Assembly (NCBI GenBank): GCA_963693365.1
Contig: CAVNZM010000003.1
Location: forward strand, 3,977,106-4,041,105
From: Amoebidium appalachense
Taxonomy: Eukaryota; Protista; Ichthyosporea
Direction of reading: 5' to 3'
Length of the DNA stretch: 64,000 nt
Made by a program: the position numbers and the translations under genes. The notes beneath the pieces are model-generated. The model saw only the letters and a list, made by a program, of their open reading frames with translations. It did no database searches and had not been told where the DNA came from. Position 1 is the stretch's first letter, and every line of letters starts with the position of its first letter. Positions 32,773 to 52,160 of this stretch are shown here, in pieces.

Positions 32773-35700
32773 ATGTCAGAAGCTGCTTCATCGCCTTTAG
32801 GTGCCACACCGCCTGCTCCGGTGGCCCCGGTGGCACGAGAGTCTAGGGTGGTGCAGTACAAGCAGGGCCAGCAGATACCTGTTGATGAGGATAGGTGTGT
32901 GTGTGTTTGTGTGTGTATGTGTGTGTGTGTGTGTGTGTCTTGTGTGTGTGTGTGCCTTTGTGTTTGTGTATGTGTGCGTGTGCGTGTGTGTGTGTGTATG
33001 TGTGTGTGTGTGTGTGTGTGTGTGCGTGTGTGTGTGTGTGCAGGCGTGTATGTGTGTGTGTGCGTGCACACGCGTGTGTGCGTGTGCGTGTGCGTGTGAG
33101 CTTGTGTGTGTGTGTGTGTGTGTGTGTGGTTGTATGTGTGGGCTTGGCTTATGTGTGAGCGTGAGTAGGCGGATGCGTGGGCACGCGGGCTCCGAGTTTA
33201 TTGGGCGCGATGGGTGCGGATGGAAACACACGCGTGCGCGAATTTGTGTGTGCAGATGCGCTTTTGTGGGCTGGGTGTGTGTGTGTGTGTGTGTGTGTGT
33301 GTGTGTGTGTGTGTGTGTGTGTGTGTGTGTGTGTGTGTGTGTGTGGCTGCTGATAAGTGTATGCATACTTGTGTTTGTGGGTGTGTGAAAGTGGACTATC
33401 GTTGTATGTTCGTGAGGGTGCTAGGGACGACGTGTGAATTTGTATGTTTGGGTGTTTGGGGTGAAAGGGTGGGTGGGTGAGAAGTTAGGTATTCTATTTT
33501 ACCTGTATGTAGGTTGCTTGGTGTACGAGTGTCTGTGTGGATGTGAAGTGTCCTGGGGACCCCCTCGTTCCTTTTTCCTACTTCTTTTCGTCACCTCCTA
33601 CCAACCCGCCCCTTCCCCCTCCCCCCCCCCTCCCCCCTCCCCCCACTCCGGGAGACCCCCCTCCCCCCTCCCCCCACTCCGGGAGACCCCCCCCCCCCCC
33701 CCCCCCACTCTCATAGGTCTCCCCATGTCCCTCAACTCCCCGCCCCCCCCCCCGCCCTCTGCCCCCCTCTCCCCTGCCCCTTCTCCCTCCCCGTTCTCCC
33801 AACCCCCCGGTACAACCAACTCTTAAAGGCGAGAACCAGGAGCAGCTTACATGCCTAACACTTTATCCCACAGGCAACATGAGTTCAAATCCATCCAGCA
33901 CAGCCACGAAATGGCCAACTCCATTGCCAAGCACTGCCAACGCTACATCAACGCCTTCTTGAACACGGCGGGTGGAACAATCTACTTTGGGGTCGAGGAT
34001 GACGGGACGGTGCTAGGGCTGGAGATGTCCAGGAAGATGAGGGATGCGGTTAGGCTGGCGGTAGACCGTGTTGTCGGCACTTTCAGGTGTGTGTGCTTTT
34101 CTTGTCTCAGTACCCGTAAATCGTGAATTTTGTTATGGTAGACCCAGCAGATAATGCTGTGTACCCTGTTTCCTTTCTTCATGCAGAATATTGTTTTTCC
34201 AACGGAAAGTGGAAAATGTTGTGTTTGTCGCTTAGGAATAGGTGTAATAAGCCCCATATGTAAAGGGCCAGTGGGTGGACCATGGCTCGTTTGGAATGGG
34301 AGTAGAGGGGTGGGGGGAGAGGGGGAGAAGGGGGAGGGGGGGAATTGTTCAGCAGTGGCAATCAACGGTTGCGACAGGGTTGAGAGAGGTTTCTTCCTTT
34401 TTTTTTTTTCTTTTTTTTTGTGGGGGTGGGGGGGGGGGGGGGGGGAGGGGGGGGGGGGGGGAGGTTATGTCCACAAATCAAAAACGTTCATGCCTGAGGT
34501 GATGAACTTTAATGAAGCAGAAGAAGGGGAAAGGGGGGGGGGGGGGGGGGGGGGGGGGGGGGGGGGGGGATTATTATTGTTTAGCAACGACTTATCTACT
34601 TGTCGAGGAATAAAGAAATGGTGCAAAGCATGGAGAAACGATGCAGGAGAGTGATGGTGGGAGGGAGGGAAAAAGTGAAGGTGGGGGAGTGGGGGGGGGG
34701 GGGGGGGGGGGGGGGGGGGGGGGGGGGGGGGGATCGATAGTGCCACAAACACGCACGCGCACACACATAAAGACAGGCACACACACGCGCGCACACGTAC
34801 ACACACGCACACGTACACACACGCACACACACACGCACGCACGCACGCACGCACGCGCCACACACACACACACACACACACACACACACACACACACACA
34901 CACACACACACACACACACACACACACAATGCAGGAGAGACCCATTTGTTCACAGTTCACACCTTCTTTCACCGCGTAACACGTATGTGTTTGCAGGCCG
35001 CAAGTGGAGCCACAACTCTACCGTGTGGACTTTGTTCCTGTCAGTACTACGGCGGGTGGGCCACAACAGTCGCACACAGGAAAGAACAGGAGTAGGTCAC
35101 AGTCTCCTGCTGCGGCTGGGAGAAGAACAAGGAAAACATCAGGTGTGTTGAGCAGTGTGTTTGATCACAACTGGGTGCACGTGTATTTGTTTGTTCGTTT
35201 TGTTCGTTTTTTCGTGTGTTTGTGTGTTTGTGTGTTTGTTTGTTTGTTTGTTTGTTTGCATTTTTTTTGTTTTTTTGTTTTCGCGAGGGAGCAGGGATGG
35301 GGGGCGGGAGGAGTGGGGGGAGGGGGGGGGGGGGGGGGGGGGGTTGTTGATGCGGGTGTTGGGCACACACACACACACACAAACAGACACACACGCGCGC
35401 GCACGCGCGCGCGCACACACACACACACACACACACACACACACACACACACACACACACACACACACACACACACACACACACACACACAGGGCAATGA
35501 ATGGGTTGCATATGTGATTCGGATCTGCAAGTTTCCAAAACACTCCCCTCCTCTTCCCCCCCCCCTCCCCCCCCCCCTCCCCCCTCCCCCTTTCTCCACC
35601 TATTGGGGATGCCTCCCCGTCCCCTCGCTTTGCCTTGGAAATTGATTGATCATAACGCTGACCGCATGACACCCACACACGTGTGCACACACACACACAC

Positions 35701-50700: not shown

Positions 50701-52160
50701 TGCTTGTCCTTTTTTTTTTTACCCTTCTCGCTCCCTCTCAAAATTTCACATACCCCTTCTCCCAATCCCCGTAAATCCTCTCCTCCCCCCCCCCCCCCCC
50801 CCCCCCCCCCCCCGCCGCCGCCCTCTCTCCAATGCCCACCACCACCCGCCACGTCCCCCCTCCCCCCCCCCCCCCCTCCCCTCCCTCCCCCCGCTGCCTC
50901 CCCCTTCCCCCTCCCCCCTCCCCCTCCCCTTCCCCGCCCCCTTCCTCAACCCCCCTCTTACGGGTCTGCTGTTGATGTTTAATGTGATGTATACTGTTTG
51001 TATGTGCTATGCAAATCTCTTTTGTGTTTTCCGTCTTGGATGTGTTCTTCCCTTCCCTCCCACCTTTCCTACGCCGCCCTGACCCCCTCTCTCTCGTTAG
51101 GTCCCTACTCACCACTTATTTTACTGACACCGTGACTCTCCCCCCCCCCCCCCCCCTCCCCCCCTTCCCCTCTCTCCCCTTGTATTCCCCCCCTCCCTCC
51201 ACCCCATATCTTCCCCCTTCCCCTGCCCATCCCTCTCATCCACACACACTTACACCCTCCCCCTCTTCCCCCCCCCCCCTCCCCCCCCCCTTCCCCCCCC
51301 CCCCCCCCCCCCCCAAAAAAAAAAAAAAAAAAAAAAAAAAAAAACCTTCAGTCCGCACCAACTTTGAAGCTGCCTTCAACCGCAGTTTCAACTTCCCCTC
51401 CGAAGAAACCGCAAACGCCAGCTCCCGTCTTGCCGCCCGCCTGTTCATATTCCGTTTTTGCCTTCCGGAACCATTCCGCCAGCGCATAAAAGACTACATG
51501 AGAGAAAACCCGGCGGCAATGGACTTGGTTCCCATACACACACAGTCCATACCCACCCCACCAATCACGTGCGAGTGTGAAATCGACGCAAACGTGAATC
51601 CTTCTTTGCGATTGGCTAACAGCCCGAGGGTCCCCACATCACCCTCCCTTCGTTCCAACCAATCGGATAGCTCGGCTGGTAACCAAATTGGGAAAATGCT
51701 GAACGGATTTGCGCAAGATCCGGCCGTGAAGAGGAAAGTCGCGCCCCCGCGCCTCACCGTAGCCTCGTCTTCCGCGGACCCTGAAAATTCAAAGACCCCC
51801 CTGGGGAGCGAGGACGAAAGAACCCCCACCCACTCAGGTCCGCCAAATGAAAATTCGTTCGTTCCGTTGATTTTCTCTCCAAGGACTAGCCGGCGATTTA
51901 GGCACGGGGATACTATGGAGGAAGACTCGGACGACAGACTCAAAATTTCGGATGCAATTTCCGATAACTTTTCAATTTCCGAAAGCGAAATTGCGGAGCG
52001 GGTGCCGGATTCGAGTGCAGACGAGGAGGTTGAGGGGGAGATAATCGTGATTCAGTCACCGAGATTGGCCAATCGGCCGGCAGCGTCCGCCGTCCCCTTA
52101 GAGGATGCTCTAGATCGACTAGACATAAACCCCGATGCTTCGGTTGGGCCGAGCCAGTAG
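32773..52160 (+). CDS. Schlafen/AlbA_2 RNase domain fused to an NB-ARC-like STAND P-loop NTPase, with disordered C-terminal tail (about 895 aa, 21 exons)
   Basis: Phase-consistent exons: 32773-32894, 33874-34086, 34997-35142, 37635-37752, 39259-39278, 40004-40044, 40583-40687, 41012-41058, 41648-41741, 42960-43017, 44040-44119, 44730-44765, 45287-45360, 46405-46546, 47294-47427, 48130-48245, 48555-48652, 49212-49289, 49690-49764, 50614-50695, 51352-52160 (sum 2688 nt). Schlafen motifs: [54 protein letters not shown] motifs: DFIGRE, Walker [14 protein letters not shown], Walker B CILVIENA, sensor [33 protein letters not shown]. Confidence 0.88.
35880..37600. repeat. About three tandem copies of a ~550-bp compound CA/C-rich unit in intron 3 of the Schlafen-STAND gene
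   Basis: The landmark ctcacccctagccccccag recurs at about 35977, 36531 and 37078. The landmarks aaactcacgcacaccctcc, ccttcccccttcccc and cctcccctccgacccc follow in the same order each time. Confidence 0.85.
38051..38424 (+). mobile_element. Dispersed ~400-bp repeat, copy C (slightly 5'-shorter), followed by a diverged partial copy at about 38570-38700
   Basis: Near-identical to copies A and B from catggttgctctg to gcattcaaa-CCCC. The partial copy retains gggtcgaaa..ggatgactt..aggatgggctctgctt. Confidence 0.85.
45579..46430 (+). repeat. Six degenerate tandem units (about 125-190 bp) spanning the acceptor and first codons of the Walker B exon
   Basis: The unit ca(t/a)tgaa(t/a)gcacagacaacatatgt...aacttatt...ttctt(g/t)tgatc.aata starts at about 45579, 45704, 45834, 45991, 46180 and 46355. 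The last unit contains the functional acceptor at 46404. Confidence 0.8.

Follow-up and report, generated by a model that had tools for sequence, protein, structure and literature searches.

A spliced Schlafen–NB-ARC gene of Amoebidium appalachense and its protist family, a candidate group of gated RNA nucleases

A stretch of 64,000 nucleotides from the ichthyosporean Amoebidium appalachense (assembly GCA_963693365.1, contig CAVNZM010000003.1, positions 3,977,106 to 4,041,105; hereafter the window) contains, at 32773..52160 on the plus strand, a gene whose 21 exons splice in phase into a coding chain of 2700 nt with a single stop, i.e., a protein of 899 amino acid residues in the order Schlafen domain, NB-ARC module, short helical region, and low-complexity tail. 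A sequence-only reading of this DNA, made by a model that ran no database searches, had proposed a chain of about 895 residues and had interpreted it as an NLR-like, signal-triggered switch. The chain is borne out; the switch, as it was stated, is not supported, because the protein has no repeat sensor and two residues of its nucleotide pocket are changed. Here, we describe the gene, its domains, and its relatives among protists, and we weigh what such a protein might do.

Gene structure and surroundings

All 20 introns end in AG, and the donors are GT in 17 of them and GC in the other three (introns 4, 5, and 6). P0003, a EukProt protein of Amoebidium parasiticum named as a transcriptome open reading frame (ORF), is a letter-for-letter match to residues 174-899, so that 17 of the 20 joins are confirmed, including those across the three GC-AG introns. 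Contigs X1 and X2, from two of three runs whose RNA nature is presumed by the search tool, lack intron 7 (324 nt, GT..AG) and continue past exon 8 into exon 9; none of the runs found to contain the sequence is recorded as RNA. Because these contigs and P0003 possibly share data, we counted them as one source. The proposed exon chain is therefore confirmed from exon 4 on, whereas joins 1-2, 2-3, and 3-4 we infer from phase, from collinearity with the Creolimax protein P0001 (39% identity over 702 columns, residues 29-686), and from the length of X1, which has 1026 nt ahead of exon 7, while the exon chain requires 672. The surplus of 354 nt may be 5' untranslated region or unseen exons.

It could be argued that exons 1-3 are part of another transcript, or that extra exons intervene, so that the catalytic half is not joined to the NB-ARC module at all; the three joins unseen in RNA, the start of P0003 at Met174, and a Sphaeroforma record that has no Schlafen part would all agree with this. 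However, P0003 includes the C-terminal Schlafen strands, X1 reaches 1026 nt beyond exon 7, and the proteins of Creolimax and many relatives are collinear single proteins, and we consider such a wrong 5' chain very unlikely. An alternative in-frame chain with a GT donor at 37740, in which exon 5 is skipped, was rejected as the main form because P0003 disagrees with it. Bacterial contamination is ruled out by the 20 spliceosomal introns together with the identical protein from a eukaryote transcriptome, in agreement with the view of the sequence-only reading that this is a long-resident host gene. The spliced Schlafen–NB-ARC gene is real, well beyond chance.

Two kinds of oddity were seen within the gene itself. 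Introns 4-6 (37753-40582) are three GC-AG introns in a row, all confirmed by P0003. Partial duplicates of exons lie inside introns, namely the 5' part of exon 17 (48407-48470) and the 3' end of exon 14 (46682-46737), which are 91-93% identical to their originals, and by eye a further exon-14 copy near 46885-46919; they are unused in P0003, and the copy of exon 17 comes with an AG and a GT of its own.

A dispersed repeat of about 380 bp, possibly a short mobile element, occurs on the same strand in full copies that are 95-96% identical, at 38046-38430 (intron 4), 20904-21281, and 9898-10275, and in part at 12665-12837 and 38598-38644; Rfam gave no matches in the 64-kb window, this repeat included. 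In intron 13, a unit of about 120-130 bp is repeated in tandem in degenerate form (45564-46432). On the minus strand, a reverse transcriptase fragment (25248-25883; PF00078, E 3e-23) is probably part of a decayed retroelement at about 24.9-26.9 kb. The downstream neighbour is an intronless 424-aa MBOAT_2 ORF on the minus strand (55906-57180; PF13813, E 6e-9), and the upstream neighbour is an intronless 263-aa ORF on the plus strand (28447-29238), Ser/Arg-rich and then coiled-coil-like, with no Pfam match. Further upstream, at about 15800-20300 on the plus strand, short exons resemble by eye a gene for a TBC-domain (Rab-GAP) protein; the one exon scanned had no Pfam match.

Schlafen domain and NB-ARC module

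The Schlafen/AlbA_2 domain spans residues 29-262 and is split by a low-complexity insert of about 90 residues (128-219). Exon 1 (32773..32894, residues 1-41) carries the start codon and the first catalytic glutamate, E39, and is joined, on the grounds of phase and homology, to exon 2 (33874..34086, residues 41-112), which carries the Schlafen core with E44, K46, NAFLN, and FGVEDDG (D83). Exon 2 alone matches PF04326 at 42.7 bits (E 9.7e-11) against a curated cut-off of 25.3, and the Creolimax protein reaches 53.3 bits. The catalytic motif E39-x4-E44-F-K46, recognized already by the sequence-only reading across exons 1 and 2, is thus intact, and D83 aligns to the second Asp of GVDD in 5yd0, which we take to be the third catalytic residue. 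Exon 3 (34997..35142, residues 112-161; joins without RNA view) holds the remainder of the first Schlafen part and the beginning of the insert, which goes on as an acidic/basic region in exon 4 (37635..37752, residues 161-200; identical to P0003 from residue 174) and through exon 5 (39259..39290, residues 200-211; P0003), and ends in exon 6 (40004..40044, residues 211-224; P0003), each of these three exons having a GC donor. The C-terminal Schlafen strands begin in exon 6 and continue in exon 7 with RRDG (40583..40687, residues 225-259; X1, X2, and P0003). Identity to Creolimax is highest in the two Schlafen parts (57%, exon 2 included, and 53%) and falls to 46%, 45%, and 32% in the later parts; in the insert it is only 16%. 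Please note that a basic patch in exons 4-5 (residues about 188-205) is common to Creolimax despite the otherwise unconserved insert; it is possibly a nuclear signal or an RNA-binding patch.

Our main structure model is that of the Creolimax relative, based on an alignment of 100 sequences (pLDDT 83.8). Its N-domain fits the C-lobe of SLFN13 with Z 14.2 and a root mean square deviation (rmsd) of 2.2 over 124 residues, and the alignment is to the C-lobe only (5yd0 188-324), i.e., the domain has a single lobe, as bacterial Schlafens do. Other fusion partners of the same Schlafen subtype are a cold-shock domain, NACHT-HEAT repeats, and a CCCH zinc finger (P0254-P0262, P0270, P0271). As for vertebrate SLFNL1, its kinship with this subtype is a presumed resemblance; no SLFNL1 record came up in the searches, which neither supports nor excludes it.

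According to the literature, the Ex4(E/D)xK motif is essential for tRNA cleavage in SLFN11 and in bacterial Schlafens (PMC13056530); SAMD9L (PMC11221667) and Avs9 (PMC12680541) likewise require the equivalent acidic site. Because the motif is conserved here, we regard it as likely that the Schlafen domain cuts RNA, with tRNA as the probable substrate.

The NB-ARC module (residues ~283-590) begins about 20 residues after the Schlafen domain. The linker is encoded by exon 8 (41012..41058, residues 260-275), with the 7-8 join and the contig end into exon 9 observed. Exon 9 (41648..41741, residues 275-306; contigs and P0003) has the hhGRE motif (FIGRE), exon 10 (42960..43017, residues 307-326; P0003) the intact Walker A GRPGVGKS (K318), exons 11-13 (44040-44119, 44730-44765, and 45287-45360, residues 326-389; P0003 identity) nucleotide-binding domain, and exon 14 (46405..46546, residues 389-436; P0003 and alignments) a non-canonical Walker B, LVIEN, with sensor-1 VTSR. 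Helical domain 1, with the GLPL-type CGYLPL, comes from exons 15-16 (47294-47427 and 48130-48245, residues 437-520; P0003), and the winged helix, where the MHD motif reads QND, from exons 17-19 (48555-48652, 49212-49289, and 49690-49764, residues 520-603; P0003 and alignments). The order of nucleotide-binding domain, helical domain 1, and winged helix is that of the family by both PF00931 and structural matches, and PF00931 matches P0003 at 34.2 bits against a curated cut-off of 23.5 (E 2e-8), so both domain assignments of the sequence-only reading stand above curated cut-offs. Its motif series is present as well, with Walker A, sensor-1 Arg, hhGRE, and GLPL intact, but the series is not canonical: the Walker B Asp and the MHD His, canonical in an ADP-locked switch, are replaced by E396 and N579, respectively. 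The closest solved NB-ARC by sequence is that of Streptomyces AfsR (E 8e-35, compared with 6e-13 for Apaf-1), plant NLRs being also more distant; the NCBIfam profile of the AfsR family gives E 4e-26, yet far below the family cut-off.

After the winged helix come about four helices (Creolimax model), from exon 20 (50614..50695, residues 604-631; P0003 and the Creolimax model) into exon 21 (51352..52160, residues 631-899; P0003, without Pfam match), in which the last conserved helices reach to about residue 690 and are followed by the tail and the stop TAG. Of the folded parts, this region after the winged helix varies most (32% identity to Creolimax), and the tail of about 209 residues, Ser/Pro/acidic and of low complexity, is absent from Creolimax. 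A Pfam scan found no TPR, LRR, or WD40 in the Amoebidium protein, P0003, or the Creolimax protein.

In the Creolimax model, the NB-ARC part fits CED-4 along the whole module (Z 23.8, rmsd 3.7, 333 residues, 14% identity), a Z value tied with those of active NRC4, RPP1, G10, and WRR4A. The model aligns over 300-350 residues to CED-4 and active resistosomes, whereas ADP-bound or resting chains align over only about 215-225 residues, or with an rmsd of 17; this conformational evidence weakly suggests an open state. CED-4 is not known to have a repeat sensor and is restrained by CED-9. The MHD His contacts ADP, and mutations in MHD usually lead to autoactivation (PMC6713354); in canonical STAND proteins, the closed ADP-bound state is stabilized by the sensor, and CED-4 keeps its ATP unhydrolysed (PMC7583971).

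A protist family and its origin

Profile searches, with names looked up for 26 proteins, gave 23 named proteins from 22 taxa, Amoebidium included. These are Amoebidium, Creolimax, and Sphaeroforma among ichthyosporeans; Cavostelium, Mastigamoeba, Pelomyxa (two proteins), Mastigella, Arcella, Stereomyxa, and Balamuthia among amoebozoans; Dysnectes, Chilomastix, Carpediemonas, Hexamita, Spironucleus, Giardia, Barthelona, TZLM1-RC, Paratrimastix, Blattamonas, and Monocercomonoides among metamonads; and the apusomonad Thecamonas. Besides the Sphaeroforma record mentioned above, those of Giardia and Hexamita are incomplete in that they stop early. No animal, fungal, or plant name was found among the Schlafen-bearing matches, many of which are nameless, so this does not show absence. 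Where the Schlafen start of a named protist protein could be aligned, E-x4-E-x-K is conserved without exception (22 of 22 proteins) and the Asp of G-V-x-D with one exception (21 of 22). The Amoebidium protein is no one-off but a member of a family found in four protist groups, and the Schlafen–STAND pairing as such is on record in bacteria and animals.

Two members have unusual annotated partners. In the Paratrimastix record P0105, the annotation places the Schlafen–NB-ARC part at the C-terminus of a GCN2-like kinase (RWD, kinase, HisRS-like); this may be a merged gene model, and if it is not, a tRNA sensor would be tied to a tRNase. The LRR tail of P0122 (Blattamonas) may likewise come from a merged model.

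TPR arrays, and with them the full three-part layout, are present in the proteins of Thecamonas and Balamuthia; several unnamed proteins have TPR arrays too. We tallied the NB-ARC motifs over 49 of 78 Schlafen-bearing rows, i.e., those with both motifs aligned (29 incomplete rows were dropped, near-duplicates are included). The MHD His is present in all eight TPR-bearing rows and absent in 39 of the 41 TPR-less ones, and Walker B has the Glu in 40 of these 41. Among 95 relatives, mostly without Schlafen, 82 have both the Asp and the His. These observations bear on whether the Amoebidium protein could still be a classical, self-contained NLR, in which direct sensing of a pathogen product by the four C-terminal helices or the tail would lead to exchange of ADP for ATP, to oligomerization, and to tRNA cleavage by the Schlafen domains. 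The intact Walker A, sensor-1 Arg, hhGRE, and GLPL would allow it, the variability of the post-winged-helix region is what sensors often display, and the three-part layout does exist in Thecamonas and Balamuthia; the Amoebidium protein, though, has no repeat array, it belongs with the TPR-less rows in which the ADP-locking His is nearly always gone, and its tail is wholly missing from Creolimax. We therefore consider a classical NLR improbable.

Two NB-ARC trees were made, with 70 and 45 rows hand-picked from the matches and outgroups that are partly unnamed. Both place all included named eukaryote members in one clade (SH-aLRT 98), in which the TPR-bearing members diverge first and the TPR-less group has support of 94 and 88, respectively. 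The sub-groups match Ichthyosporea, Archamoebae, Fornicata, and Preaxostyla, most of which are recovered in the Schlafen-domain tree too; the agreement of the two domains on most sub-groups indicates that they have long travelled together. Outside the eukaryote clade stand P0133, P0252, and P0253, metagenome proteins with a Schlafen–NB-ARC–TPR layout and canonical motifs, which look bacterial; their Schlafen parts group with the cold-shock-domain fusions, and the AU test does not reject a topology in which they join the eukaryote clade (p-AU 0.39). The family thus probably comes from one bacterial-type Schlafen–NB-ARC–TPR protein taken up early by eukaryotes, with TPRs lost in most lineages. 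One early uptake with TPR loss is the simplest reading, unproven, and later transfers between protists are possible.

We looked for the genomic context of these bacterial-looking Schlafen–NB-ARC–TPR proteins and did not find it. GTDB genomes and metagenomes gave one distant locus each, matched outside the Schlafen domain; within one phylum, a search of 301 genomes at E <= 1e-20, made without positive control, gave no match; and plasmids gave two weak matches. The Atlas gave only generic NB-ARC clusters. A viral structure library returned generic AAA matches and separate Schlafen-like matches, with no fused counterpart among the 50 matches listed.

Possible gating and comparison with known systems

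A single-lobe Schlafen domain with intact motif, followed by an AfsR-type NB-ARC module without sensor repeats, would probably make a gated tRNA nuclease, whose restraint is predicted to come from a binding partner or from the state of assembly and not from any sensor within the protein. Our reasoning is that a nuclease needs a brake; since the ADP-lock His and the sensor are both missing and the fit to CED-4 extends over the whole length, we favour a CED-4-like, partner- or assembly-gated tRNase, which we hold tentatively, at somewhat less than an even chance. Its parts differ in strength. That the NB-ARC module sets the timing and the oligomer of cutting is fairly probable; that a module without MHD His and repeat sensor would bind ATP without the usual ADP lock and be controlled in trans, like CED-4 by CED-9, is conceivable and somewhat more doubtful than the favoured reading as a whole; and that infection would be the trigger and translation arrest the outcome, by analogy with known effectors, is a suggestion about as tentative as that reading. 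In a sister Amoebidium species, hundreds of giant-virus insertions have been described (PMC11244446), and such pressure from giant viruses would favour a role in defence.

It is not our wish to read too much into these data, and several points speak against a CED-4-like immune tRNase. Its activity, substrate, partner, and trigger are all inferred. The association of His loss with TPR loss amounts to one independent pair on starred branches (two on all; sign test p = 1) and with so few contrasts may be one historical event, i.e., a pattern rather than a test. The fit to the open state concerns the Creolimax relative, with no canonical D/H relative as control, and a model from a shallow alignment (pLDDT 60) ranked ADP-bound Apaf-1 first. 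Both NB-ARC trees come from short searches, a more careful search being incomplete; the bacterial origin of P0133, P0252, and P0253 is only presumed; and a topology that groups Ichthyosporea with the TPR-bearing Thecamonas is not rejected (p-AU 0.44), so that a single TPR loss is not established. PADLOC 2.0 (library from 2023) found no matches for four of five proteins and two weak ones (E > 0.005) for the fifth. Finally, the named taxa have mostly one or two members (the searches list cluster representatives only), and the sub-groups track species groups, unlike fast-expanding immune receptors.

The last two points, a copy number that appears low and a branching of the trees along species groups, favour a non-immune role, in which a constitutive or stress-gated nuclease serves RNA processing or the throttling of translation (tRNA turnover, small-RNA processing, dormancy) and the NB-ARC module is reduced to a scaffold. 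The family is kept in reduced genomes, e.g., Spironucleus and Giardia, transcripts are present in ordinary public runs (presumed RNA), and the GCN2-like fusion in Paratrimastix, if not a merged gene model, would fit as well. Schlafen-like proteins are described to act also in piRNA processing (PMC12492265), and 30.4% of prokaryotic Schlafen genes to lie outside defence islands (PMC13056530). The patchy distribution and the TPR-bearing sister forms, on the other hand, suit defence genes, and the tested Schlafen proteins SAMD9L, Avs9, and RorSlfn5 are toxic or antiviral effectors (PMC13056530, PMC12680541, and PMC11221667). We consider a non-immune role a close rival, though on balance unlikely.

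Returning to the partner- or assembly-gated tRNase, its boldest form would be an anticodon-nuclease "resistosome" that arose before Amorphea and Metamonada split: a bacterial Schlafen–NB-ARC–TPR defence protein would have been taken up once near the eukaryote root, would have lost its sensor and its ADP lock, and would now serve against giant viruses as a CED-4-like, partner-guarded tRNase. Taken as a whole, we think this unlikely, slightly more so than a non-immune role. If true, it would be a further independent invention of the Schlafen–STAND pairing beside SAMD9 and Avs9, and few NLR-type immune effectors that eukaryotes have retained would be as old. Antiviral defence of unicellular eukaryotes is little known, and the SAMD9/Avs9 study reports no protozoan counterpart; a Schlafen–STAND family that keeps its catalytic residues, and that occurs in close relatives of animals as well as in three further groups of protists, allows one to ask whether tRNA cleavage is an ancestral eukaryotic defence, and its natural sensor-bearing and sensor-less versions offer a test of a STAND switch without sensor and ADP lock. 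If the role is non-immune, the family is still an old, overlooked protist RNase.

The Schlafen–STAND pairing itself is already known, from SAMD9, Avs9, bNACHT34, and one catalogued bacterial Schlafen–NB-ARC protein. SAMD9/SAMD9L and bacterial Avs9 (PMC12680541 and PMC5445408) likewise have AlbA_2/Schlafen N-terminal to a STAND-type NTPase with the acidic catalytic residues kept, but the Amoebidium protein has no SAM, SIR2-like, TPR, or OB domain, and its AfsR-type NB-ARC follows straight after the nuclease. In that study, EukProt was searched for AlbA_2, and no SAMD9-like matches from protozoa are reported (PMC12680541); the protist family members are not named in four of its supplements and may be leaves in its deposited trees. 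In the full text searched, which leaves most subscription papers outside its coverage, we found no paper on a protist Schlafen–NB-ARC family. bNACHT34 (bioRxiv 2022.07.19.500537) shares the direct pairing of Schlafen with a STAND module and differs in that this is NACHT. The nearest bacterial pairing is the SLFN_AlbA_2.NB-ARC row NZ_CP084698.1_111 (supplementary file 21 of PMC13056530), one entry among 5,930 proteins and not among the architectures that one section of the paper names as tested; the Amoebidium gene, by contrast, is eukaryotic and has 20 introns. Bacterial Schlafen–STAND fusions share the Ex4(E/D)xK motif with the Amoebidium protein.

Among the single-domain comparisons, Streptomyces AfsR and the actinobacterial NB-ARC–TPR regulators are nearest in NB-ARC sequence, but the Amoebidium protein lacks the SARP DNA-binding domain, BTAD, and TPRs, and has Walker B changed from D to E and MHD from H to N. 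CED-4 of Caenorhabditis elegans, the top structural match of the NB-ARC part, is ATP-bound without hydrolysis and is not known to have a repeat sensor; it differs as a CARD adaptor without nuclease and at 14% identity, so that the analogy is one of fold and state only. The vertebrate proteins SLFN5, SLFN11, SLFN12, SLFN13, and SLFN14 share the C-lobe fold and the catalytic motif (E down to 4e-10; Z 14), but are two-lobed, with a linker and SF1 helicase, where the Amoebidium protein has one lobe and an NB-ARC partner; the difference from vertebrate Schlafens and from SAMD9 claimed by the sequence-only reading holds in these respects. Of the three parts of an NLR, the C-terminal repeat sensor is missing from the Amoebidium protein and found in relatives such as Thecamonas and Balamuthia. 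The Amoebidium protein thus stands outside the SAMD9/Avs9, vertebrate Schlafen, and three-part NLR classes, yet probably works like them.

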